Assembly: GCF_030696805.1 (NCBI RefSeq)
Contig: NZ_JAUYRO010000025.1
Span: forward strand, 1,844-65,843
Source of the DNA: Methyloversatilis sp.
Lineage (GTDB): Bacteria > Pseudomonadota > Gammaproteobacteria > Burkholderiales > Rhodocyclaceae
Direction of reading: 5' to 3'
DNA length: 64,000 nucleotides
Part shown: positions 30,217-53,357 of the stretch, piece by piece
Position numbering within the stretch: the first letter of the stretch is position 1
How the letters are laid out: each line of letters begins with the position of its first letter
Position numbers and translations under genes: made by a program
The notes under the pieces: generated by a model
What the model saw: the letters and a program-made list of their open reading frames with translations, nothing else
Told to the model about the DNA's origin: nothing
Databases searched by the model: none

Positions 30217-30232
30217 TGGCTCGTTCTCTGCT
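30217..30232 (+). promoter_or_regulatory. Sigma-54 (-24/-12) promoter of the PEP-CTERM gene
   Basis: TGGCTCGTTCTCTGCT has exact GG-N10-GC spacing and is close to the TGGCACG-N4-TTGCW consensus. Confidence 0.65.
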
Positions 30233-30303
30233 TGCATTCAGATCGATATTCCTTCCCTCTGATTTGCCGCGGCTGTGTTGCGGATCGTAATGCGAGGCAC
30301 CCA

Positions 30304-30837
30304 ATGAAATTTCCCAGCCTGCTTGGCCTGGCGACGCTCGGCGTCGCGCTTTCCTTTCCTGCGGCAGCCGGCCTCAACGGCGATATCGTTACCACTGCGC
30401 TGCACGCGGAAACGGCTGATTACGGCCGGTTCTCCGCCGTCGTCGGCGCTGGCGTAGAGGGCAGTCTGGTCGGTGGCAGGTTGCCGTTCGACTATTCCGA
30501 CTCAGGGTTCTCCTTGAGTTCGCCGGGCAACTTCTGCGGCATCCGCAGTTGCGGGGACGCGCGGGAACAGATGACCCTGAAGCTGTCCGGCCTCGAATTC
30601 GGCCCGTCCGTCGTGCTGAAGGATATTGTGCTGGTCACGATCCTGAGCAATGTCACCGTGACAGTCGGACCGACATTTGCTGAGTTTTCCTGGACCGATC
30701 AGTCGATTTCCCCGGGCGCCTTTCTGAGCGCTCAATTCGTCACCGGCGTCGTGCCCGAGCCGGAAGCGCTTACGTTGATGCTTGCCGGCCTGGGCCTGAT
30801 CGGGATTGCCGCATCGCGTCGTTCGCAGCGCGCCTGA
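30304..30837 (+). CDS. PEP-CTERM surface protein, unknown N-terminal domain
   Basis: Signal peptide. C-terminal VPEPEALTLMLAGLGLIGIAASRRSQRA (PEP + TM + basic tail). Confidence 0.9.
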   Translation: MKFPSLLGLATLGVALSFPAAAGLNGDIVTTALHAETADYGRFSAVVGAGVEGSLVGGRLPFDYSDSGFSLSSPGNFCGIRSCGDAREQMTLKLSGLEFGPSVVLKDIVLVTILSNVTVTVGPTFAEFSWTDQSISPGAFLSAQFVTGVVPEPEALTLMLAGLGLIGIAASRRSQRA

Positions 30838-41783: not shown

Positions 41784-44588
41784 ATGAATGCACCCATTGA
41801 TGCTTCGGTGATCGCGCAATCGATCGAATTCACGCTCGACGGCCAGTCGATGACGGCCCGTGTCGGCGAAACCATCCTGCAGGCGGCGGCCCGTCAGGGC
41901 GTGGACATTCCGCACCTCTGCTACAAGGACGGCTACCGTCCGGACGGCAACTGCCGCGCCTGCGTGGTCGAGATAGACGGCGAACGCGTGCTTGCGCCAA
42001 GCTGCTGCCGCGCACCGACGCCCGGCATGAACGTGAAGGCCGAGTCGGAGCGCGCCGTGAAGGCGCAGAAGATGGTGGTTGAGCTGCTGCTGTCGGACAT
42101 GCCGGACCAGACCTACACACCCGATTCCGAACTGGCGCACTGGGCAGAGAAGCTCGGCGTGACCGGCTCGCGCTTCGAAGGCCGCGATCAGCCGGCATGC
42201 GACCAGTCGCATCCGGCGATGAGCGTGAACCTCGACGCCTGCATCCAGTGCAACCGGTGCGTGCGCGCCTGTCGCGAAGAGCAGGGCAATGACGTGATCG
42301 GCTATGCCTTCCGCGGTTCGGCGTCGAAGATCGTGTTCGATCAGGACGACCCGATGGGCGCGTCGACCTGCGTGGCGTGCGGCGAATGCGTGCAGGCCTG
42401 CCCGACCGGCGCGCTGATGCCGGCCGGTGGCGTCGGCATGGTGAAGATGGACAAGACCGTCGATTCCGTCTGTCCGTACTGCGGCGTTGGCTGCCAGCTG
42501 ACTTATCACGTCAAGGACGACCGCGTACTGATGGTGAGCGGCCGCGACGGTCCGGCCAACGAAGAGCGCCTGTGCGTCAAGGGCCGCTTCGGTTTCGACT
42601 ACGCGCGTCACCCGCAGCGTCTCACGAAGCCGCTGATCCGCCGTGCCGATGCACCGAAGCACAAGAATTTCGTCGTCGATCCGGGCAATCCGCTGTCGGC
42701 CTTCCGCGAAGCCAGCTGGGAAGAAGCGATCGAGTACGCAACCAGCCGGCTGCGCACCATCCGCGACACCAAGGGGCCGAACGCTCTGGCCGGTTTCGGT
42801 TCAGCCAAGGGCTCGAACGAAGAGGCCTACCTGTTCCAGAAGCTGATCCGCACCGGCTTTGGTACCAACAACGTCGATCACTGCACACGCCTGTGCCATG
42901 CCTCGTCGGTTGCGGCGCTGCTGGAAGCGGTCGGTTCGGGCGCAGTGTCGAACCCGGTACGCGATGTGCTGCACTCGGACGTGATCTTCCTGATCGGCGC
43001 CAATCCGCTGGTCAATCACCCGGTGGGCGCGACCTGGATCAAGAACGCGGTCAGGCAGGGTGCGCGCCTCATCGTGTGCGATCCGCGCCGCAACGACCTG
43101 CAGCGCTACGCCACGCACTTCCTGCAGTTCAAGCCGGACACCGACGTGGCCATGCTGAACGCGATGATGCACGTCATCATCGAAGAAGGTCTGGTCGACG
43201 AGGCGTTCGTGCGCGACCGCACTTCGGGTTTCGATGCGCTGAAGAAGAACGTCGCCGATTTCAGTCCGGAGCGCATGGCCAAGATCTGCGGCATTCCGGC
43301 CGAAACGCTGCGCGAGGTGGCACGCATGTTCGCGACCTCGAAGGCGTCGATGATCCTGTGGGGCATGGGCGTGTCGCAGCATGTTCATGGCACCGACAAT
43401 GCACGCTGCCTGATTTCGATGGTCATGATGACCGGCCAGATCGGTCGACGCGGCACCGGCCTGCATCCGCTGCGCGGCCAGAACAATGTGCAGGGTGCCT
43501 CCGACGCCGGCCTGATACCGATGGTGTTCCCGGACTACCAGGCGGTCGGCAACAAGACCATCCGCGACAAGTTCGAAGAACTGTGGGGCAGCCGTCTCGA
43601 TGCCAACCCCGGTCTGACCGTGGTTGAAATCATGGACGCCATCCATGCCGGCAAGCTCAATGGCTGCTACATCATGGGCGAAAATCCGGCCATGTCCGAT
43701 CCGGATGTCGAGCACGCCCGCGATGCGCTGGCCAAGCTCGATTGCCTGGTCGTGCAGGACATCTTCCTGACCGAAACCGCCTACTTCGCGGATGTCGTGC
43801 TGCCAGCGTCGGCCTTCCCGGAGAAGACCGGCACCTTCACCAATACCGACCGTCAGGTGCAACTGGGTCGTCAGGCGATCAATCCGCCGGGCGATGCGCG
43901 ACAGGACCTGTGGATCATCCAGCAGATGGCCAACGGCATGGGGCTGGACTGGCATTACGACGGCGCGAAGGACGTGTTCAACGAAATGCGCAAGGCGATG
44001 CATTCGATCGCCGGCATCACGTGGGAGCGGCTGGAAGCCGAGCACTCGGTTACCTATCCGTGCGAAAACGAGGGCGACCCGGGCGACGAGGTGGTGTTCA
44101 TCGAGCGCTTCCCGACCCAGTCCGGTCGCGCCAAGCTGGTGCCGGCCAAACTGATCAGCGCCAACGAGAAGCCGGACGCCGACTTCCCGATGGTGCTGAT
44201 CACCGGCCGCCAGCTTGAACACTGGCATACCGGTTCAATGACGCGCCGGGCGTCGGTACTCGACAACATCGAGCCGATCGCCACGGTCACGATCAACCCG
44301 GCCGACATGGCGAAGCTGAAGCTGCGGCCGGGCGAGGTCGTCACGGTCGAATCACGCCGCGGCAAGATCGCGCTGTACGCGCGTGTCGATGGCAACGTGC
44401 CGGTCGGCGCCGTGTTCATCCCGTTTGCGTATTACGAAGCAGCCGCCAATATGCTGACCAATCCGGCGCTGGACCCGTTCGGCAAGATTCCGGAGTTCAA
44501 GTATTGCGCGGTGCGGTTGAAAAAGGGCGGAATGCCGACCCGACTGTCGTCCTACGGCGGCGGTCAGGCGAAGATGGTAACTGCTTGA
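41784..44588 (+). CDS. Formate dehydrogenase alpha subunit (Fdh1A/FdhF type, Cys ligand)
   Basis: IPHLC...DGNCRAC, CIQCNRCVRAC, CVACGECVQACP, CPYCGVGC, NNVDHCTRLCH, LRGQNNVQG and TGRQLEHWH motifs. Confidence 0.95.
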   Translation: MNAPIDASVIAQSIEFTLDGQSMTARVGETILQAAARQGVDIPHLCYKDGYRPDGNCRACVVEIDGERVLAPSCCRAPTPGMNVKAESERAVKAQKMVVELLLSDMPDQTYTPDSELAHWAEKLGVTGSRFEGRDQPACDQSHPAMSVNLDACIQCNRCVRACREEQGNDVIGYAFRGSASKIVFDQDDPMGASTCVACGECVQACPTGALMPAGGVGMVKMDKTVDSVCPYCGVGCQLTYHVKDDRVLMVSGRDGPANEERLCVKGRFGFDYARHPQRLTKPLIRRADAPKHKNFVVDPGNPLSAFREASWEEAIEYATSRLRTIRDTKGPNALAGFGSAKGSNEEAYLFQKLIRTGFGTNNVDHCTRLCHASSVAALLEAVGSGAVSNPVRDVLHSDVIFLIGANPLVNHPVGATWIKNAVRQGARLIVCDPRRNDLQRYATHFLQFKPDTDVAMLNAMMHVIIEEGLVDEAFVRDRTSGFDALKKNVADFSPERMAKICGIPAETLREVARMFATSKASMILWGMGVSQHVHGTDNARCLISMVMMTGQIGRRGTGLHPLRGQNNVQGASDAGLIPMVFPDYQAVGNKTIRDKFEELWGSRLDANPGLTVVEIMDAIHAGKLNGCYIMGENPAMSDPDVEHARDALAKLDCLVVQDIFLTETAYFADVVLPASAFPEKTGTFTNTDRQVQLGRQAINPPGDARQDLWIIQQMANGMGLDWHYDGAKDVFNEMRKAMHSIAGITWERLEAEHSVTYPCENEGDPGDEVVFIERFPTQSGRAKLVPAKLISANEKPDADFPMVLITGRQLEHWHTGSMTRRASVLDNIEPIATVTINPADMAKLKLRPGEVVTVESRRGKIALYARVDGNVPVGAVFIPFAYYEAAANMLTNPALDPFGKIPEFKYCAVRLKKGGMPTRLSSYGGGQAKMVTA

Positions 44589-44609
44589 TACATCGTGCGA
44601 TAAAGAAAG

Positions 44610-44637
44610 ACCGGGGCCGAGTGCCCCGGTTTTTTTT
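44610..44637 (+). terminator. Rho-independent terminator after fdh
   Basis: ACCGGGGC-CGAGT-GCCCCGGT followed by a T7 run. Confidence 0.85.
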
Positions 44638-44659
44638 GATCCTGCACCGGGTATTGTCA

Positions 44660-44689
44660 TTGACGACAGGCGAGGCTGACGGATACCCT
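44660..44689 (+). promoter_or_regulatory. Putative sigma70 promoter of the B12 operon
   Basis: TTGACG-N18-TACCCT immediately upstream of the riboswitch. Confidence 0.5.
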
Positions 44690-44699
44690 GCGCGTGCTT

Positions 44700-44887
44700 C
44701 AGGTGCCCTGACCAGCGTTCGCTGCGATGGGTGAAACGGGAAGTCCGGTGAGTGCCTGCAATCAGGTCGCAATCCCGGCGCTGCCCCCGCAACGGTAAGC
44801 GAGTTGTAGCGATCCATTCAGCCACTGTGCATGACGCATGGGAAGGCGGGTCGCGCATTTCCCTCGCGAGCCCGGAGACCGGCCTGA
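44700..44887 (+). ncRNA. Cobalamin (AdoCbl-class) riboswitch
   Basis: AGGTGCC..., AAACGGGAA.TCCGGTG, CCGGCGCTGCCCCCGCAACGGTAA, GCCACTG, TGGGAAGG and B12-box AGCCCGGAGACCGGCC appear in canonical order. Confidence 0.96.
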
Positions 44888-45043
44888 CGCATTTGACCGA
44901 TGGCTGCGGTGGGCGGCGGAGGTGCGCATTTCCTTTGCCCGGTCGCTTTTCCGCGCAGGTCGTGCGTCGCTTCCCCTTTGCTTCAGACCATCGGATTTCC
45001 GCAATTCGCCGGCGGGTGCTGCCGGCGCTGCAAGGAGGTCTGC

Positions 45044-45841
45044 ATGCGTACCATTCTTCTCACATCCCTTATCGGACTGGCGTTTGCCGGGTCTGCCCAG
45101 GCCGGCCCATTTGCGCCGGCCGCCGGTCAGGCCGGCTCGACCGCCATCAGCAAGGACAGCCCGGCTTTCGTCCAGTGGGCGACCGGCTATCTCGACTATC
45201 TGCCCGGTCCCAACGTCGACGCCACGTGGCAGACGCCGCAAAAGGGTCTGGGCGTGGCCCAGGGCGGCGCGACCGACATCGTCGTGCTTGGCGACGGCGG
45301 CAGCATCACACTCACCTTCGACGGCTACATCACGAACGGCGCAGGCGCCGATTTTGCAGTATTCGAAAACGGCTTCATGGACACCTTCCTTGAACTGGCG
45401 TTCGTCGAGGTGTCGTCCAACGGTACCGATTTCTTCCGCTTTCCGAACTTCTCGTTCACGGCCAGCCCGGTCGGCGGCTTCGGCCTGATTGACCCGACCA
45501 ATATCGACGGTCTGGCCGGCAAGTACCGCGCCGGTTTCGGCACGCCGTTCGATCTCGAGGTGCTGAGCGGCGTCGCCGGACTGGACGTGAACAAGGTGCA
45601 GTACGTGCGCCTGATCGACGTGGTCGGCAATGGTTCGACCTTCGACAGCTTCCCGGCCGAATACGGCGGGCCGCACCCCATCTACGACCCGTACCCGACC
45701 ACCGGCAGCAGCGGCTTCGACCTCGACGCAGTCGGCGTCATCCACTACGCGGCACTGCCGGCCGTGCCCGAGCCGTCGCAGTGGGCGATGTACTGCGCCG
45801 CACTCGGCCTGCTCGGTCTGGTCGCCCGCCGCCGCGGCTGA
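45044..45841 (+). CDS. PEP-CTERM surface protein, BtuH-like putative B12-binding domain
   Basis: RBS AAGGAGG and signal peptide. LGDGGSITLTFD..I.NG.G.DFAVFEN.F...FLELAFVEVS.NG..F.RF core. VPEPSQWAMYCAALGLLGLVARRRG tail. Confidence 0.88.
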   Translation: MRTILLTSLIGLAFAGSAQAGPFAPAAGQAGSTAISKDSPAFVQWATGYLDYLPGPNVDATWQTPQKGLGVAQGGATDIVVLGDGGSITLTFDGYITNGAGADFAVFENGFMDTFLELAFVEVSSNGTDFFRFPNFSFTASPVGGFGLIDPTNIDGLAGKYRAGFGTPFDLEVLSGVAGLDVNKVQYVRLIDVVGNGSTFDSFPAEYGGPHPIYDPYPTTGSSGFDLDAVGVIHYAALPAVPEPSQWAMYCAALGLLGLVARRRG

Positions 45842-45874
45842 TTCTGCCTCCGCTCACCACGAAAGATTTCCGAC

Positions 45875-46663
45875 ATGAAAAAAACACTCATCACGCTCGC
45901 GCTGGGCGCACTGGCCGCCAGCCATGCCGCTTATGCCGCAACCACCGTAGCCACTTTCGACGACCTGCCGCTGGCGCCCGAAAGCCACTTCTTCCCGCAA
46001 GTGACGACCACCTTCACCAGCGGAGCGGCCACGTTCAATCACACTTTCACAAACTTCGGCGGCGGCTGCTGCCATGTTGACTGGGTGTATTCCAACCGCA
46101 CCGACACGACGACCGGCAACTACACCAATCAGCACAGCGCGATCACCGGCGGCGGTGCCGACGGATCGGGTCATTACGCGATCGCCAACTTCGGCGCGCC
46201 GACTGTCAGCTTTGCGTCGGCCGTCAGCGTGCAGGGTGCGTACTTCACCAACACGACGTTCACCGGCCTTACCCTGCTCACCGGCGACTTCTTCTCGAAA
46301 AAGTTCGGCGGCGCCAGCGGCAATGACCCCGACTATTTGAAGCTGACCATCCTCGGCAAGGACGCCGGCGGTGCGACGACCGGCAGCGTCGACTTCATGC
46401 TGGCCGACTACCGGTTCGACGACAACACGCAGGACTACGTGGTGACCGACTGGCGCTGGGTCGATCTGACGGCACTGGGCAGCGTCAGCAGCCTGCAGTT
46501 CGCGCTGGCGTCGAGCGACAGCGGTGAATTCGGCATCAACACGCCGGCCTATTTCGCGCTCGACAATCTGACTGTCACCGCCGTGCCGGAACCCGAACAG
46601 GCCGCGTTGCTGCTGGCCGGTCTTGCGCTGGTCGGCGCAATCGCGCGTCGCCGTCGCGGCTGA
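45875..46663 (+). CDS. PEP-CTERM surface protein with DUF4465 (BtuJ-like) domain
   Basis: Signal peptide. FTSG.A.F, YSN.TD, NQ.SA..GGG..GS..YA, TNTT, KKFGG, DY.KLTI.G, F.LADYR, W.WVDLT.LG, SSD.G..G.NTPAYF.LDN motifs. VPEPEQ...ARRRRG tail. Confidence 0.9.
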   Translation: MKKTLITLALGALAASHAAYAATTVATFDDLPLAPESHFFPQVTTTFTSGAATFNHTFTNFGGGCCHVDWVYSNRTDTTTGNYTNQHSAITGGGADGSGHYAIANFGAPTVSFASAVSVQGAYFTNTTFTGLTLLTGDFFSKKFGGASGNDPDYLKLTILGKDAGGATTGSVDFMLADYRFDDNTQDYVVTDWRWVDLTALGSVSSLQFALASSDSGEFGINTPAYFALDNLTVTAVPEPEQAALLLAGLALVGAIARRRRG

Positions 46664-46676
46664 TCCATTCCGGGGG

Positions 46677-46708
46677 TCACCCGCACGCCTTCAGCGGCGT
46701 GCGGGTGA
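46677..46708 (+). promoter_or_regulatory. Intra-operon perfect 13-bp stem-loop without U-tract
   Basis: TCACCCGCACGCC-TTCAGC-GGCGTGCGGGTGA between the DUF4465 gene and the TonB receptor gene. Confidence 0.7.
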
Positions 46709-46714
46709 GGTGTA

Positions 46715-48796
46715 TTGATGCATTACTTCTGCCTGTTACTGTTGTTGCCCGTGTTGCCGGGCCTGGCGTTTGCACAAGCCTCGGCGCAGCGCCTGCACGA
46801 ACTGGACGAAGTCGTCGTCAGTGCGCCGTCGGCGGCCGACACCTTGCGTATGGTGCCTCACAGCGTCTCCATCATCACCACCGAAGACATCGAGCGTTCG
46901 CCGTCACGCACCGTGGCCGAGGTGCTGGGTCGTGAAGCCAACCTCAATATCCAGAGCTATTTCGGCCGCGACAAGGGCGCCACCGTCGACATGCGCGGCT
47001 TCGGCGCCACGGCGGTCAGCAATGTGCTGGTGCTGGTCGACGGGGTCAGGCTGAACGCATCGGATCTTTCCGGCGCCGATCTGTCGTCGGTCGCGCTGTC
47101 GCAGGTCGAACGCATCGAAGTGCTGCGCGGCGGAGGGGCGGTGCGCTACGGTGACGGCGCGGTCGGCGGCATCATCCATGTGCTGACAAGGCGTCCGCGC
47201 AGCGGGCCGCTGAAAGGTGAATTCGAGGCGCGCACCTCTTCGTATGACACGCAGGAACTGCGCTTCAGCGCGTCCGGCGGTTCCGGGCCGCTGTCCGGCC
47301 GCATCGATGTCGGTCGGCTCGACGGCGACGGCTACCGTGACAACGACGAACAGCGCCGGCGCGATACGGCGGCCGAGCTGCGCATCACGCCTGATGGCCC
47401 GCTGTCCTTCATGGACGTGCTGCTTCGCGTGTCGCGCCACACCGATGAATACAAGTTGCCTGGTCCGGTGTCGCGCGAACGCTTCCTGTCCGGCAGCGCT
47501 GCGCTGCGTCGCTCGAGCACCGCGTCCCCGCTTGACGGCGGCAGTACCGACGACCGCAAGTTCGGCACGCTGTGGCGCTTCGATGTGGGCGATTTCGGCC
47601 TGATCGAGTTCCAGACCGATCACCGCACGCGCGACAACCCGTATCTGATCGGTATCAATCCGGCACTGCCGCTGAGCGATCAGCAATACACGATCGAATC
47701 AACGCGGCGAGACGTGCAGCTGCGCTACGACCTCGAGTACAGCGTCTTCGGCCGCGTCCATTCGTTCGGCGCCGGCTTCGTCACACAGTCGTCCGACTAC
47801 CTGCGTCGTGACGCCGGCCGCACCGTGATCGACCAGTCCAGGCTGCGTACCGGCGACCTGAACGGTCAGGCCTGGTATGCCGAGACGGTGTTCCGCGCGA
47901 CCGATGCGCTGCGCCTGAACGCTGGCTGGCGCAGCGATGACACGAAAAGCCGTACCGAAGCAGCCACCTACCGGCGCACCTGCCAGTTCCAGAACGTGTT
48001 CATTCCGGGCCTGGGCCTCATCCCGGTGGAAATTCCGGGCAGTTGCGTCACTGGCCTCGAAGCTGACAGCCGTTACGTGTCGAGCACGAAAAGCCATGCC
48101 GCGGAGCTGGGCGTGAGCTGGCAGCCGGTGAAAGCGCTGGTGGCGTTTGCCAGCGTATCGCGCAACTTCCGCAACCCGAACATCGACGAACTGGCGCTCG
48201 CGTCGTCCGATCTGCGCGCGCAGCGCGGACGCACGATCGAAGCCGGCATGCGCCTGCAGCCCGATGACAGGCTGTCACTCGGGCTGACGCTGTTCCGACT
48301 GCGCAATCAGGATGAAATCTACTTCGACAGCACCGGCGTGCCGAGCGTGAACCGCAACTACGACCTGCCGACCCAGCGCACCGGCGTTGAGCTGGAAACG
48401 CGCTGGCAGCCGTCGACCGCGTGGCTGTTCGCTGCCAATGCCGGCTATGTGCAGCCGCGTTTCAAAGGTACCGACGCCGACATTCCGCTGGTGCCGCGCT
48501 GGACGGCGAATGCGCGCGCCGAATGGCTGCAGACGCCGTCGCTGCGCTGGATCGTTGCAGCACGTCATGCCGGCCGACGCTTCGACGGCAACGACCTCGA
48601 CAATCGCAGCTTCGCCGAACTGCCGTCCTACACGGTGTTCGATCTTGCGCTGCGCCTCGATCTGGGCGGTGGTGCGCAACTGGCGGCTGGCATCAACAAT
48701 GTGTTCGACAAGGTGTACTCGACCATTGCCTTTTCGGAAACTTACTATCCGATGTCCGAGCGCAATGGCTACGCCAGCCTGCGCTGGCGCTTCTGA
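46715..48796 (+). CDS. TonB-dependent outer membrane receptor (probable cobalamin transporter, BtuB-like)
   Basis: TonB box LDEVVVSA, plug (SIIT.EDI, DMRGFG, VLVLVDGVR, ERIEVLRG), C-terminal LRWRF. Position in a B12 riboswitch operon. Confidence 0.9.
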   Translation: MMHYFCLLLLLPVLPGLAFAQASAQRLHELDEVVVSAPSAADTLRMVPHSVSIITTEDIERSPSRTVAEVLGREANLNIQSYFGRDKGATVDMRGFGATAVSNVLVLVDGVRLNASDLSGADLSSVALSQVERIEVLRGGGAVRYGDGAVGGIIHVLTRRPRSGPLKGEFEARTSSYDTQELRFSASGGSGPLSGRIDVGRLDGDGYRDNDEQRRRDTAAELRITPDGPLSFMDVLLRVSRHTDEYKLPGPVSRERFLSGSAALRRSSTASPLDGGSTDDRKFGTLWRFDVGDFGLIEFQTDHRTRDNPYLIGINPALPLSDQQYTIESTRRDVQLRYDLEYSVFGRVHSFGAGFVTQSSDYLRRDAGRTVIDQSRLRTGDLNGQAWYAETVFRATDALRLNAGWRSDDTKSRTEAATYRRTCQFQNVFIPGLGLIPVEIPGSCVTGLEADSRYVSSTKSHAAELGVSWQPVKALVAFASVSRNFRNPNIDELALASSDLRAQRGRTIEAGMRLQPDDRLSLGLTLFRLRNQDEIYFDSTGVPSVNRNYDLPTQRTGVELETRWQPSTAWLFAANAGYVQPRFKGTDADIPLVPRWTANARAEWLQTPSLRWIVAARHAGRRFDGNDLDNRSFAELPSYTVFDLALRLDLGGGAQLAAGINNVFDKVYSTIAFSETYYPMSERNGYASLRWRF

Positions 48797-48798
48797 GG

Positions 48799-49779
48799 TC
48801 AGTTCCGGTGCGGCACCCGCGTGCTGCGCTGCGCGAAATAGAACCACTCGTTGCCCGGTGACGAGGTCGGATTCGGAAACACGATGTAGCCGTCCTGCGG
48901 CGCCGTGACCGCCGTGCCGTCGTGGCGGCGGCCGATCAATTCGCCGGCCCTGACCGGGTCGAAGCTGCACCAGGGGCGCGCGAACTGATCGTCGGGGTGC
49001 AACCGGTCCACCACTTCGGTCAGACGCAGCAGCTCGAAATCTTCGCGTGCTGGCGTCGAGGGTTGTTCCACCAGTCCGAGATGCGCCAGCGTATTGCGGA
49101 TGGCGCGCCAGGCGAATTCAGGCGCGGCCGGATCGTCGTGCTGGCCGCATTCCAGCGTCACTGCATAGCCGCCCATGCGGCGCATGTATTCGGTGGTGCC
49201 GATGCCGTAGTCCGGATCGGTCGACAACAGGTGGGCGCGTTCGGTCGGCGCGGTGCGGGCCAGTCGCTTGCGCACGCCGGTCGCGTAGGTGTCGAGCCAG
49301 CCCTCGACCAGACGGCGCGCACCGAGCCGCAGCGCCAGTGCCTCTTCAGCAGCCGCGTGCGAGAAGGCTTCCAGCGTGCCATCGTTGTCCTGCGGCCCCA
49401 GCATGGCGAACGGTTCGCCGCCGGTGTGGAAGGAATGCAAGTCGAGCAGCACGTCGTGCGCGGCGAGCAGCGGGCACAGCACGTTGGCGATGCGGTCCTC
49501 ATAGTCCAGCGGCTCGGCAACCGGACGCAGGTTGCGGTTCAGATTGCGGTCGCCGGCGCGCCGCTTCAGCGTCCAGGCGAGCGGATTGGTGATCGGCACG
49601 AAGGTGACGGTGCCGCGCACGATGACCAGATCGCCGCGCGCCAGTTCGTCGAGCACGCGCTCGATGCCGCGCGTGCCGCCGATTTCGTTGCCGTGTACGG
49701 CGCCGAGCACGATCAGGCGCGGCCCGGCTTCGAGACCGTGGAAGGTGTGTGAGGTAAGGCTGTGCGTGGACGGATTCAT
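48799..49779 (-). CDS. Succinylglutamate desuccinylase/aspartoacylase-family Zn hydrolase
   Basis: GAVHGNE, NLNR, LDLHS and TLECGQH motifs. Confidence 0.88.
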   Translation of the reverse strand: MNPSTHSLTSHTFHGLEAGPRLIVLGAVHGNEIGGTRGIERVLDELARGDLVIVRGTVTFVPITNPLAWTLKRRAGDRNLNRNLRPVAEPLDYEDRIANVLCPLLAAHDVLLDLHSFHTGGEPFAMLGPQDNDGTLEAFSHAAAEEALALRLGARRLVEGWLDTYATGVRKRLARTAPTERAHLLSTDPDYGIGTTEYMRRMGGYAVTLECGQHDDPAAPEFAWRAIRNTLAHLGLVEQPSTPAREDFELLRLTEVVDRLHPDDQFARPWCSFDPVRAGELIGRRHDGTAVTAPQDGYIVFPNPTSSPGNEWFYFAQRSTRVPHRN

Positions 49780-51450: not shown

Positions 51451-52416
51451 TCAATCGCGCCCGAGCAGCGCCACATATTCGCGCAGCGCGTCGGCGTCGA
51501 TGTCGCGCGTGATGAACACGACGATCGATCCACGGCCCGCGTCCGGCCATTCAGCCAGCGGCGTCGGCGGATGAAGCGTGTGCTGCATGCCATGTATCGC
51601 CACCGGCCCGTTGTGCCCCTCGACATCGAACAGCGCCTTCATGCGCAGCAGGCCTGGGCCTGCGATGCCCGGCCAGCCGGCGAGCCAGGCGTCCAGTCGC
51701 TCAGCGGCAATCGGCCGCTCGAAGGCATAGCTGTCCGCGCGAATGGCGTGCGGTGCGTCCGTCATCACGGGATGAAAGCGCGCTGACCGGGGCGGTGGCG
51801 CATCAAGCAGCGCCATCAGCCCGGCGTCATCGGCCGTCGCCTGAAGGTCGGTATGTGGCGCAAAGGGATTGATGCGTTCGAGCTTGGTACGCAGCACACC
51901 GAGCGCGTGGGCGTCGGACAAATCCGACTTGCTGATCAGCAGGCGGTCGGCGGCGGCGATCTGGCGTACGGCTTCATCCTGTGTCGCCAGCGTGCCCGCG
52001 GCGTGCAGCGCGTCCACAACGGTCAGCGTGCAGTGCAGACGGTAGCGGGCGGCGATGCGGGCGTCCTGCGTCAGCGTGCGCAGGATGGGCGCCGGGTCGG
52101 CGAGACCGGTCGTTTCTATGACGATGCGTTCGAACTGCCGGCGCCCGACGCGCGCGAAGCGCCAGTGCGCGTCGCGCAGCGTCTGCGCCAGATCACCACG
52201 CAGGCTGCAGCAGACGCATCCGCCCGGCAGTTCGACCACCGGCTGTTCCGCCGAGTGGGTCACCAGCAGATGGTCGAGCGAGGCGTCGCCGTACTCGTTG
52301 ATGATGACCAGCGTGTCGGCCATTCCGGGTGAGGCGAGCAGGCGGTTCAGCAGCGTGGTCTTTCCGCTGCCCAAAAAACCGGTCAGCAGGATGATCGGAA
52401 GCGGGCGGTCGCTCAT
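51451..52416 (-). CDS. COG0523/CobW-family G3E metallochaperone GTPase
   Basis: LTGFLGSGKTT, INEYG, GGCVCCS, IETTGLADP, SKSD and LR.K motifs. Confidence 0.9.
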   Translation of the reverse strand: MSDRPLPIILLTGFLGSGKTTLLNRLLASPGMADTLVIINEYGDASLDHLLVTHSAEQPVVELPGGCVCCSLRGDLAQTLRDAHWRFARVGRRQFERIVIETTGLADPAPILRTLTQDARIAARYRLHCTLTVVDALHAAGTLATQDEAVRQIAAADRLLISKSDLSDAHALGVLRTKLERINPFAPHTDLQATADDAGLMALLDAPPPRSARFHPVMTDAPHAIRADSYAFERPIAAERLDAWLAGWPGIAGPGLLRMKALFDVEGHNGPVAIHGMQHTLHPPTPLAEWPDAGRGSIVVFITRDIDADALREYVALLGRD

Positions 52417-53357
52417 GCGGGCACGCCGTCGAGCAGCGCGGCGCGGGTGCGCGGACTCGCCAGTTGCTGCAGCCACCAGTCGAGCGCGCGACCGCGCGGG
52501 CCGGTGCGCCAGGCGATCGAGAAGCGGGCGACCTTCGTGTCGCCGGTGTCCTTCGCCACCAGTCGCCCGGCCGCGATGTGGGCGCGCACGCGGCTTTCCG
52601 GCAGGAAGCCGCAACCCAGACCGCGCAGCTGTGCGTCGATCTTCATGTCGAGCGTCGGCACGGTGAGTACGTCCTGTCCCGGCTGCAGATTGCGCGATAC
52701 GGGCGACAGTTTCAGCGCGCTGTCGGCGATGGCGACGGCGCGATGCATGCGGATGACTGCCGGTGTCAGCACGGACGCGATGCGTGCCAGCGGATGCTGC
52801 GGTGCCACGACGAACACGAATGGAACGTCGCCCAGCGGCTCGATCTGCACGCCGCTGACCCGGCTGTCGTCGGCATCGACGCCGATCGCCAGGTCGGCCG
52901 AACCGGTCAGCAAGGCCTCCCAGGTGCCGGACAGCACCTCCTGGCGCAGCCGGATGCGCGTGGGTGGCGGCAGTCGGGCGGTGTCGCGCTGGCCGTAGAA
53001 AGCGTCCACCAGATCGAGCAGCGTATGCGGACAGAACAGTGCGTTGGCGGCGATCGCGAGCTGGCCTTCCCAGCCGCTGGCGACCCGCTTCACGCGGCTG
53101 GCGACGGCATCCATCTCGATCAGCAGGCGACGCCCTTCCGACAGCAGTTCGCGACCGGCCGGCGTCAGAACGGCGCTGCGGCTGGCGCGATCGAACAGCA
53201 GCACGTCGAGTGCGTCTTCCAGCTGACGCACGCTGTAGCTGAGCGCCGACGGCACCTTGCCGAGCACGCGCGCCGCGGCGGCAAAGCTGCCGGCTTCGTC
53301 GATGGTGGCGATCAGGCGGATCGCTTCAGGGTTCAGCGGGTGGTCGTGGTCGCTCAT
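52413..53357 (-). CDS. LysR-family regulator (YhaJ-like)
   Basis: GSFAAAA..L.KVPSALSY.VR.LE..L...LFDR, E.L.GTWEAL and VA.ADS motifs. Divergent from pirin. Confidence 0.92.
   Translation of the reverse strand: MSDHDHPLNPEAIRLIATIDEAGSFAAAARVLGKVPSALSYSVRQLEDALDVLLFDRASRSAVLTPAGRELLSEGRRLLIEMDAVASRVKRVASGWEGQLAIAANALFCPHTLLDLVDAFYGQRDTARLPPPTRIRLRQEVLSGTWEALLTGSADLAIGVDADDSRVSGVQIEPLGDVPFVFVVAPQHPLARIASVLTPAVIRMHRAVAIADSALKLSPVSRNLQPGQDVLTVPTLDMKIDAQLRGLGCGFLPESRVRAHIAAGRLVAKDTGDTKVARFSIAWRTGPRGRALDWWLQQLASPRTRAALLDGVPA

Follow-up and report, generated by a model that had tools for sequence, protein, structure and literature searches.

The 64,000-nucleotide stretch of Methyloversatilis DNA that was analysed (the window) carries a three-gene operon that probably serves the acquisition of corrinoids (vitamin B12), with two predicted binders that bear PEP-CTERM tails and a BtuB-like receptor. 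The initial annotation had listed a cobalamin riboswitch, two genes for PEP-CTERM proteins (here P1 and P2), a hairpin and a receptor gene. All of these are present on the + strand (Table 1), and the spacings it gave, 33 bp between P1 and P2 and 51 bp between P2 and the receptor gene, are exact. The promoter it had also reported was not recovered, as a sigma-70 consensus scan found none in 44400–49000. The operon is a unit with clear borders, set on the 5' side by a terminator (44613–44633) that belongs to a formate dehydrogenase gene and on the 3' side by a convergent gene (48799–49779, − strand). The host is a betaproteobacterium, P1 being 97% identical to its counterpart in Methyloversatilis genomes.

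Table 1. Features of the predicted corrinoid acquisition operon, in window positions
Feature	Position	Strand	Basis
Cobalamin riboswitch aptamer (RF00174)	44684–44901	+	cmscan, 111.7 bits
Putative expression platform	44902–45043	+	includes P1 ribosome-binding site AGGAGG, 45033–45038
P1, predicted secreted BtuH-like protein with PEP-CTERM tail	45044–45841	+	PF07589, AF2, Foldseek, hhalign
P2, predicted secreted DUF4465 (BtuJ-like) protein with PEP-CTERM tail	45875–46663	+	PF14717, PF07589
Intercistronic 13-bp GC-rich hairpin without U tract	46677–46708	+	RNA fold
TonB-dependent receptor, BtuB-like by context	46715–48796	+	PF07715, PF00593

The predicted riboswitch is a genuine, full-length aptamer lying ahead of the operon. 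The match to RF00174, at 111.7 bits (E 3.6e-27), compares with a gathering score of 31.5 and covers model positions 1–189 of 189. In the minimum free energy fold of 44895–45044 (−76.3 kcal/mol, z −3.6), GGAGGUC is paired with an upstream GGAUUUCC stretch, and this pairing may depend on the ligand. The P1 open reading frame was listed as 44900–45841; the true start is most likely the ATG at 45044 (MRTILL...), which the ribosome-binding site precedes.

By sequence comparison, P2 (262 aa) is a clear homologue of BtuJ, as the initial annotation had proposed. Its DUF4465 domain (PF14717) spans aa 69–232 with an E value of 2.8e-49, followed by the PEP-CTERM segment at aa 236–261 (PF07589, 26.1 bits), and its PDB matches are B12-bound structures, 9HMU being the best (E 2.4e-23), with 9FCT (E 6.4e-22) and 9I2L. 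The NTPAYF loop is kept in P2, and with it the hallmark tyrosine of this HI-loop (NTPAY), which 68 of 71 related domains share; Tyr146, which contacts B12 in BtuJ1, is Phe in P2. Eight divergent DUF4465 proteins bind B12 experimentally (PMC13398666).

P1 (265 aa) consists of a Sec-type signal peptide (aa 1–20, ending in AQA), a core domain (aa 21–238; 45104–45757) and a PEP-CTERM segment (aa 240–264), which is its sole Pfam match (PF07589, 24.8 bits; cut-off 20.7 bits). AF2 models the core with a pLDDT of 96, and the model's three best fold matches among 350,542 PDB chains, 8blw_B and 7biz_A/B (TM 0.48–0.49; Foldseek), are the only BtuH-domain structures among those chains. Comparison of the P1-family profile with a verified BtuH-family profile gave a probability of 96.1% and an E value of 3.3e-9 (hhalign), and a plain profile search of the PDB reached only E 0.085. 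P1 is ∼80–100 aa shorter than BtuH, and the confident alignment is limited to ∼80 columns in the N-terminal half. Within it, Asn399, Phe401 and Glu406 of BtuH2, which belong to the nucleotide-loop and metal site (PMC13616437), align with N89, F91 and E97 of P1, which are invariant or nearly so; of the 12 ligand and metal residues listed for BtuH2, nine fall in regions where P1 is not confidently aligned. [quoted passage not shown]

The receptor has a signal peptide, a TonB-box-like DEVVVSA, a Plug domain (PF07715, E 1.2e-25) and a β-barrel (PF00593, E 2.9e-39). Its best PDB matches are the plug domains of E. coli BtuB; its scores fall far short of the cut-offs for the BtuB equivalog models of NCBIfam, where a generic siderophore-receptor subfamily ranks first. 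The hairpin ahead of its gene consists of 13 perfect GC-rich pairs with no U tail (46655–46725 folds at −34.5 kcal/mol, z −2.56) and is not among the entries of the terminator scan. Metatranscriptome contigs from relatives 90–95% identical span the riboswitch, P1 and P2 and are deeper there than over the receptor, contig depth being a poor measure of expression.

The P1 family comprises ∼2,000 clusters at 50% identity. Its context was surveyed in 80 other genomes, and neighbours were counted at the 41 loci where P1 has 4 kb or more on each side: a DUF4465 gene was found near P1 at 29 of these, a receptor gene at 30, and one or the other at 35. Such neighbours adjoin P1 in Proteobacteria, Verrucomicrobiota, Planctomycetota, Desulfobacterota and Bacteroidales, and the P1 gene often lies directly beside the receptor gene or overlaps it. 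True P1–DUF4465 fusions occur in Planctomycetes and Bacteroidales, and at one locus (L025) the P1 core is combined with propeller repeats. A co-oriented cobalamin/AdoCbl riboswitch lies upstream in 36 of the 49 P1 loci scanned, and the linkage holds at loci that lack DUF4465 (for example L043, L058, L062 and L074). Because this association turns up again in dozens of genomes that are unrelated, the arrangement can hardly be accidental. The initial annotation had pictured a graft by one betaproteobacterium, which is too narrow: the P1, DUF4465 and receptor module spans phyla, with its anchors swapped by lineage, and is not a local graft; it is probably old.

The tails of P1 and P2, both above the Pfam threshold, stand in place of lipoprotein anchors, and among the 120 relatives closest to P1, 98 have a PEP-CTERM tail. 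Across the family the sorting signal varies with lineage (PEP-CTERM, VPLPA-CTERM, T9SS with a type A domain, dockerin, choice-of-anchor U). We propose that intracellular cobalamin would turn the operon off via the 5' riboswitch, which would probably mask the ribosome-binding site ahead of P1. Under B12 limitation, P1 (the BtuH relative), P2 (the DUF4465/BtuJ-type jellyroll binder) and the BtuB-like TonB-dependent transporter would be made. P1 and P2 would be exported by Sec and passed by their PEP-CTERM tails to an exosortase, which would place them at the cell surface or within the matrix around the cell, where they would catch corrinoids and hand them over to the transporter; the floc-matrix sponge imagined in the initial annotation may be one form of this. 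An ABC system coded elsewhere would complete uptake, and the intercistronic hairpin would probably ensure that the binders outnumber the transporter.

One alternative is that P1 does not bind corrinoids and is a β-sandwich adaptor, either a carbohydrate/matrix module or a receptor lid or docking partner in the role of BtuG, which holds the complex or P2 in place while P2 alone binds B12. We regard this as unlikely. CBM32, discoidin and F5/8-type C folds do rank close behind BtuH for the P1 core (TM 0.33–0.45), and the alignment reaches just three of the 12 residues of the BtuH2 ligand site, but these belong to the BtuH nucleotide-loop/metal site and are invariant or nearly so in P1, and the best folds and the sole significant profile–profile match are B12-binding domains of BtuH. 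The frequent overlap of the P1 gene with the end of the receptor gene is expected of a stoichiometric partner, a Pfam domain search found no BtuG-type propeller encoded in the window operon, and BtuK2 of Bacteroides thetaiotaomicron offers an earlier case of an accessory protein without B12 binding (PMC13616437); however, P1 is riboswitch-linked even at loci without DUF4465.

It is improbable that P1 and P2 are periplasmic, tethered to the inner membrane by their C-terminal helices and receiving B12 from the receptor in the manner of BtuF. For PEP-CTERM proteins in general, it is poorly established where they end up, and what happens to them after export is poorly documented; no btuF or btuCD was found in the operon or its flanks, nor an exosortase gene among the window ORFs examined. 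Non-lipoprotein members of DUF4465 have been described with periplasmic targeting signals (PMC13398666), but the tails of P1 and P2 pass the PEP-CTERM model threshold and are not generic helices, homologues carry unambiguous extracellular or surface signals (T9SS type A, dockerin, a Planctomycete extracellular signal), and the characterized relatives BtuH and BtuJ are surface-exposed lipoproteins in B. theta (PMC13616437). Least probable of the three is a different cargo under B12 control, such as incomplete corrinoids taken up for salvage (cobinamide or cobyric acid), or some other tetrapyrrole or a cobalt complex, in place of complete cobalamin. Riboswitch-controlled uptake genes are a classic B12 transport signature, and the closest solved plug-domain relatives are those of E. 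coli BtuB, even though the receptor's NCBIfam scores and the Tyr146Phe change in P2 would fit another ligand. Tight cobinamide binding is also known for BtuJ1 (bioRxiv 10.1101/2025.07.01.662609), but every DUF4465 protein tested binds cyanocobalamin (PMC13398666).

The preferred reading, surface capture of corrinoids by P1 and P2, most resembles the extracellular relay of B. theta (loci 1–3), in which B12 passes from BtuJ to BtuH/BtuG to BtuB (PMC13616437). Riboswitch control, a DUF4465 binder, a BtuH-type domain and a TonB-dependent transporter are common to both, as are BtuH-type domain fusions, BtuG1 (BtuH plus propeller) being matched by L025. The relay differs in its N-terminal lipidation, where C-terminal PEP-CTERM tails are found here, and the window operon lacks both the BtuG/BtuK propeller and btuFCD; B. 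theta is a gut anaerobe, whereas Methyloversatilis is a free-living groundwater betaproteobacterium. The DUF4465 binders described outside Bacteroidota (D5EK51 of Coraliomargarita akajimensis and others; PMC13398666) share the domain of P2 and a reported genomic linkage to TonB-dependent transporters, but they were called lipoproteins or periplasm-targeted, PEP-CTERM and exosortase are unmentioned there, the tested set had no proteobacterial member, and the partner family of P1 was not defined. E. coli btuB likewise has a leader cobalamin riboswitch, probably acting at translation initiation, on an outer-membrane TonB-dependent B12 transporter, but as a bare receptor without extracellular capture proteins, whereas here two predicted binder genes precede the receptor on the same transcript.

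P1 and P2 share with other PEP-CTERM cargo, such as the floc-associated PepA family (NF033554), the N-terminal signal peptide and the PEP motif, hydrophobic helix and basic cluster, and they recall Haft's 'choice-of-anchor' domains, where the same cores carry different anchors in each lineage. Most PEP-CTERM proteins, in contrast, have no identifiable ligand-binding ancestry or metabolite-sensing regulator, and the passenger domains of P1 and P2 have both. The initial annotation had considered such a system undescribed. For DUF4465 proteins from outside Bacteroidota, B12 binding had been published before (PMC13398666) and is therefore no novelty; our literature search found no paper tying PEP-CTERM or exosortase to B12 uptake. 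If the proposed reading is true, PEP-CTERM proteins would gain a concrete job in nutrient scavenging.

The three genes are co-oriented and separated by gaps of 33 and 51 bp, as the initial annotation had counted, and a cobalamin riboswitch with a full-length aptamer heads them, as it had also claimed. An Rfam scan gave no other match in the entire 64-kb window. A promoter had been proposed as well; this could not be upheld, as a sigma-70 consensus scan of the locus gave no site for the operon. The first product, P1, is a secreted protein with a PEP-CTERM tail. Its true start is almost certainly the ATG rather than the start of the listed ORF, since AGGAGG lies five bases 5′ of this ATG and the product then opens with a Sec-type signal peptide. 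In the minimum-free-energy fold of the leader (44895-45044), GGAGGUC is predicted to pair with an upstream segment (z −3.6). The operon boundaries are clear, with the formate dehydrogenase terminator on the 5′ side and a gene of the AstE/AspA family on the 3′ side. The hairpin in the second gap was not called a terminator because it has no U tract, and it was absent from the list of the terminator scan. A CobW-family GTPase gene was rejected as an operon member, being on the opposite strand and past two unrelated genes, and despite its name it is probably unrelated to the B12 operon. The host belongs to Methyloversatilis (Betaproteobacteria): two assemblies of this genus encode P1 at 97% identity, and the exact DNA is present in groundwater metagenomes. 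A culturable relative, Methyloversatilis universalis FAM5, encodes P1 at 82% identity.

Features of the operon and of the surrounding window (positions within the window)
Feature	Position	Strand	Description
Third PEP-CTERM protein gene	30232-30837	+	201 aa; PF07589 30.5 bits, no other domain; adjoins RND efflux operon
Terminator of NAD-dependent formate dehydrogenase operon	44613-44633		Upstream operon boundary (terminator scan)
Cobalamin riboswitch, RF00174	44684-44901	+	111.7 bits (gathering score 31.5), E 3.6e-27, model positions 1-189 of 189
P1 gene	listed ORF 44900-45841; start almost certainly ATG 45044	+	265 aa; signal peptide and PEP-CTERM
P2 gene	45875-46663	+	262 aa; signal peptide, DUF4465, PEP-CTERM tail
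Intercistronic hairpin	46677-46708		In second gap; perfect 13-bp, GC-rich, without U tract
TonB-dependent receptor gene	46715-48796	+	693 aa; Plug and barrel; TonB-box-like DEVVVSA
AstE/AspA-family gene			Downstream operon boundary; convergent
CobW/HypB/UreG-family GTPase gene	51451-52614	-	CobW_C domain; 2.7 kb downstream, past AstE-family and SelO genes

The second product, P2, matched PF14717 (DUF4465) at 168.3 bits against a cut-off of 25 (E 2.8e-49, profile positions 8-176 of 176). The likeness to BtuJ, a surface B12-capture protein of Bacteroides thetaiotaomicron, that the initial annotation had put forward extends to solved structures: P2 matched 9HMU (protein D5EK51, E 2.4e-23), 9FCT (BtuJ1, E 6.4e-22) and 9I2L (BtuJ2, E 7.9e-09), all of them DUF4465 proteins with B12 bound, and 9qpm was also among its PDB matches. 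Tight B12 binding has been reported for BtuJ1, BtuJ2 and six more divergent DUF4465 proteins, and the HI-loop motif (G/N)TPAY forms the conserved core of the site, with its tyrosine retained in 97% of homologues (PMC13398666). The HI loop of P2 reads INTPAYF, so that the tyrosine equivalent to the B12-binding Tyr245 of BtuJ1 is retained, as it is in 68 of 71 aligned DUF4465 domains from related loci (P2 of the window included). The DE-helix tyrosine (Tyr146 of BtuJ1) is Tyr in 64 of the 71 aligned domains and Phe in P2 of the window, a conservative change. Given the matches to B12-bound structures, the published DUF4465 binding and the retained INTPAYF, we strongly infer that P2 binds corrinoid. 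BtuJ1 and BtuJ2 carry an N-terminal lipoprotein anchor, whereas P2 has a PEP-CTERM tail instead; a lipobox cysteine is absent from its signal peptide, which ends HAAYA before ATT. P2 also aligned over nearly its full length with NF038120, the ‘QFxxD family PEP-CTERM protein’ (44.4 bits, cut-off 80), as did a homologue at L014:7849-8607, in one of the P1-encoding loci of other genomes (28.7 bits, below the same cut-off). This PEP-CTERM family is curated but has no assigned function, and it may be related to DUF4465.

P1 has no Pfam or NCBIfam domain beyond its C-terminal tail. Neither the single sequence nor a close-family profile (A1) matched the PDB, and a diverse profile (A2, 28 cores taken from 80 genomes) reached at best E 0.085, to 8blw_B, which is B. 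thetaiotaomicron BtuG1 bearing a BtuH domain. Since a plain profile search went no further than this, the relationship with BtuH is remote, and it emerged only in profile-profile comparison. The BtuH-family profile (A4) was collected from a BtuH1-like sequence read off a frameshifted Bacteroides contig, L081, to which we were led by a single 80-aa fragment, all that a search with a 49-aa BtuG1 segment gave; the profile was verified as BtuH by its matches to 7BIZ (E 1e-101) and 8BLW_B (E 2e-81). Aligned with hhalign, A2 and A4 gave a probability of 96.1% (E 3.3e-9, 79 columns, 34% identity), and with BtuH2 as master the two families gave 95.9%. The common core reads (V)SLGxGGxIT(L/V)xFxxxIxNxxGxDFx(V/I)xxNxFxxxxxE.

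Asn399, Phe401 and Glu406 of BtuH2 belong to its corrin, nucleotide-loop and two-metal site (PMC13616437). In the alignment, where the BtuH2 numbering was checked at five residues, they correspond to N89, F91 and E97 of P1 in core numbering (N109, F111 and E117 in the full-length protein). A2 shows no variation at N89 and E97, and the close-family alignment A3 almost none at F91. The other BtuH2 site residues (Q333, F334, Y475, H476, Y510, D522, W577, S582 and E584) lie outside the confidently aligned regions of P1; the C-terminal halves align with low confidence, BtuH being ∼80-100 residues longer.

The AlphaFold model of P1 had a pLDDT of 87.6 over the full length and 96.1 over the core (aa 21-238). 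When the full-length and core models were compared with 350,542 PDB chains using Foldseek, the same three structures came out on top, 8blw_B and 7biz_A/B (BtuH2 with B12), at E ∼1e-3, probability 1.00 and a query-normalized TM of 0.48-0.49 with an rmsd above 10 Å. Generic discoidin/CBM32 beta-sandwiches ranked next, closely behind. The modelled fold similarity to BtuH is moderate, and homology to BtuH is supported by the profile-profile score. On our reading of the alignments, P1 is a genuine, distant member of a BtuH-like superfamily, and it is plausible that it binds B12. The P1 family is highly conserved despite having no annotated core domain: a word-indexed search gave at least ∼8,000 hits, and phmmer, run exhaustively against 1.84 billion representatives at 50% identity, gave 2,029 clusters at E ≤ 1e-3, 908 of them at E ≤ 1e-30. 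A weak similarity to NF033170 (‘LIC_13355 family lipoprotein’, Leptospira) recurred at the SLG..DF..EN core, at aa 82-142 of P1 of the window and in the homologues of loci L014, L022, L057 and L074 (E 2e-4 to 7e-3, far below cut-off); NF033170 may represent a further branch of this superfamily, one anchored by lipid.

The receptor matched PF07715 (Plug) and PF00593 (barrel), with its TonB-box-like segment near the N-terminus. It fell below the cut-offs of both NCBIfam equivalogs for BtuB, the outer-membrane B12 transporter (TIGR01779, 143.4 bits against 599.7; NF007926, 98.5 bits against 836), and it is therefore BtuB-like by context only and not a BtuB orthologue.

The PEP-CTERM tails claimed for both proteins were confirmed with PF07589 (P1 24.8 bits, P2 26.1 bits, cut-off 20.7); with TIGR02595 (cut-off 16), P2 scored above at 19.5 and P1 below at 14.6. 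N-terminal Sec signal peptides were read from the sequence as MRTILLTSLIGLAFAGSAQA, followed by GP, for P1 and MKKTLITLALGALAASHAAYA, followed by AT, for P2. A scan of 30 window ORFs gave no exosortase (EpsH/Xrt). The third PEP-CTERM protein encoded in the window suggests a wider use of the exosortase system by this genome.

In other genomes, the C-terminal signals of P1 and P2 homologues follow lineage. PEP-CTERM is the signal in Betaproteobacteria and in many Verrucomicrobiota (P2) and Planctomycetota; Gammaproteobacteria have VPLPA-CTERM (TIGR03370, 30.8 bits against 25.35), Bacteroidales a T9SS type A sorting domain (41.3 bits against 23), Planctomycetota dockerin, and one Desulfobacterales protein a choice-of-anchor U domain. 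Among the closest 120 relatives of P1, 98 have PEP-CTERM-like and nine VPxPA-like tails. Several of these signals are unambiguously surface or extracellular, and in B. thetaiotaomicron BtuH and BtuJ sit on the surface as lipoproteins; the destination conserved for both passenger domains therefore most likely lies outside the outer membrane.

Two further kinds of C-terminus were seen. In Desulfobacterales, P1 and P2 both carry a G-x-C-F-[IVL] tail outside the assigned families. Most P1 and DUF4465 homologues of six loci from Desulfobacterales and relatives (L048, L049, L051, L044, L022 and L031) end with a glycine-rich stretch, C-F-[IVL] and then 3-8 residues, and the two tails scanned (L049) matched nothing in Pfam or NCBIfam; such tails may form a C-terminal sorting signal that has yet to be described. 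In Verrucomicrobiota and Kiritimatiellota, P1 homologues (loci L033, L039, L042, L050, L053-L057, L059, L060, L067, L068 and L076) have C-terminal extensions of 60-330 aa that end in a conserved (R/K)F(W/Y)R(V/L)xx motif, with no PEP-CTERM, and in most of these loci the partner DUF4465 protein retains PEP-CTERM. The two extended proteins scanned, from L053 and L057, matched no family.

The initial annotation had read the operon as a graft made by one betaproteobacterium. This reading does not hold, as the P1 module was found across phyla. A scan of one genome per GTDB species gave at least 551 P1-encoding stretches, and the best 80 of these, which we examined, come from Beta- and Gammaproteobacteria, Verrucomicrobiota (Coraliomargarita, Haloferula and Luteolibacter included), Planctomycetota, Desulfobacterota, Kiritimatiellota, Spirochaetota and Bacteroidales. 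Iterative searches of all their ORFs placed P1 with DUF4465 in 57 of the 80 loci and with a receptor in 50; since the loci were picked by P1 similarity, the co-occurrence figures given here describe the neighbourhood of P1 and not that of DUF4465. Of the 41 loci in which P1 is flanked by 4 kb or more in each direction, 30 had a receptor nearby, 29 DUF4465, 24 both and 35 either. By Rfam scans, 36 of 49 loci have a cobalamin or AdoCbl riboswitch 5′ of the cluster and in the same orientation, several of the negative loci being cut at contig edges; the positive ones include some with P1 but without DUF4465. Gene order is P1-P2-receptor in Betaproteobacteria, receptor-P1-P2 in Gammaproteobacteria and P2-receptor-P1 in Verrucomicrobiota and Desulfobacterota; in the latter two phyla, P1 and the end of the receptor gene often overlap. 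Such lineage dependence points to selection for keeping the genes together, and not to a single fixed operon passed on by descent. At the Thiobacillus locus (L008:8639-8823), a 6S RNA gene (64.2 bits) lies directly downstream of the receptor gene.

True fusions join the same domains. Planctomycete proteins of ∼2,000 aa combine the P1 core with three DUF4465 domains and a dockerin, proteins of ∼505 aa combine DUF4465 with the P1 core, and a P1-DUF4465 protein occurs in Bacteroidales; the Planctomycete and Bacteroidales cases stand. A Chthoniobacterales protein (L025:6977-9073) joins the P1 core to beta-propeller repeats (SBBP, Reg_prop), the design of B. thetaiotaomicron BtuG1 (BtuH domain and propeller), apparently of independent origin. 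Three apparent fusions in Aquabacterium/Betaproteobacteria MAGs (L004:6773-8575, L006:6899-8491 and L007:3712-5467) were rejected as Rosetta-stone evidence, given an internal PEP-CTERM motif. Each is an uninterrupted ORF with the P1 core and then DUF4465; those of L004 and L006 close with a PEP-like tail and that of L007 ends at a contig edge. In L004, the one scanned, the internal motif lies at aa 310-334 (27.8 bits), between the P1 core and DUF4465. The stop codon between the P1 and P2 genes is missing in all three independent assemblies, and the ORF could represent either a tandem pre-protein that exosortase and signal peptidase then cleave or an artefact of assembly.

The closest known system to the window operon is the Btu relay of B. 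thetaiotaomicron (PMC13616437, PMC8941943, PMC10404256), and the operon is not a categorically new system. B12 binding by DUF4465 proteins outside Bacteroidota and their linkage to TonB-dependent transporters are already published; there, non-lipoprotein members are called periplasm-targeted, and PEP-CTERM and exosortase go unmentioned (PMC13398666). In earlier work, the BtuH fold is said to lack known structural homologues and to occur in gut Bacteroidetes and three Firmicutes species. Full-text searches found no apparent literature linking PEP-CTERM with cobalamin or a cobalamin riboswitch, the paper that holds both PEP-CTERM and ‘cobalamin riboswitch’ using them of unrelated loci, and no papers joining exosortase with vitamin B12 and TonB-dependent, or Methyloversatilis with exosortase. 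As far as the literature searched shows, the P1 family with its BtuH ancestry, the three-part cross-phylum module and the exosortase-type anchoring are new.

We infer ligand binding, regulation and localization alike for P1, P2 and the receptor, along the following lines. At high B12, the aptamer-bound leader would hide the ribosome-binding site of P1; at low B12, P1, P2 and the receptor would all be produced. P1 and P2 would cross the inner membrane via Sec and be processed by exosortase at the PEP-CTERM tail, which would lead to their display at the surface or within the matrix, where they would capture corrinoids and hand them over to the receptor for TonB-dependent import, and an ABC system encoded elsewhere would finish uptake. 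The hairpin 5′ of the receptor gene may set an excess of binder over transporter. The window's own sequence was in none of the RNA runs. In three of the four runs compared with the window (X25, X26 and X28), word depth over the riboswitch, P1 and P2 was clearly, by several-fold, above that over the receptor (window 44600-48900; in X28 ∼40-280 against mostly 6-46); these depths lend weak support, because they come only from metatranscriptome contigs of 90-95% identical relatives, which are other strains, and contig depth is a poor measure. In the RNA contig of one relative, the P2-receptor spacer is swapped for 123 unrelated bases.

We consider the evidence evenly poised on the broader reading, of a phylum-spanning, riboswitch-controlled B12-capture module that would consist of an undescribed BtuH-like family (∼2,000 clusters at 50% identity), a DUF4465/BtuJ protein and a dedicated TonB-dependent transporter, with attachment swapped among PEP-CTERM/exosortase, VPLPA-CTERM, T9SS, dockerin, a possible new GxCF tail and lipidation. 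In Beta- and Gammaproteobacteria, both ligand and regulator would then be defined for a PEP-CTERM/exosortase cargo for the first time, and extracellular B12 relays would be general in Gram-negatives and not a speciality of gut Bacteroides.

To our knowledge, almost none of the thousands of PEP-CTERM proteins has an assigned function. A riboswitch-regulated pair with recognizable B12-binding ancestry is a tractable exosortase cargo whose phenotype, growth at low B12, can be selected for. The P1 core merits a domain model of its own, such proteins now being named after their tails only. If the broader reading is true, BtuH, for which surveys have been confined to gut species, would represent a single branch within a far larger unannotated family, and extracellular corrinoid capture, studied so far in gut Bacteroides, would reach bacteria from many phyla in groundwater, sludge, sediment and the sea.
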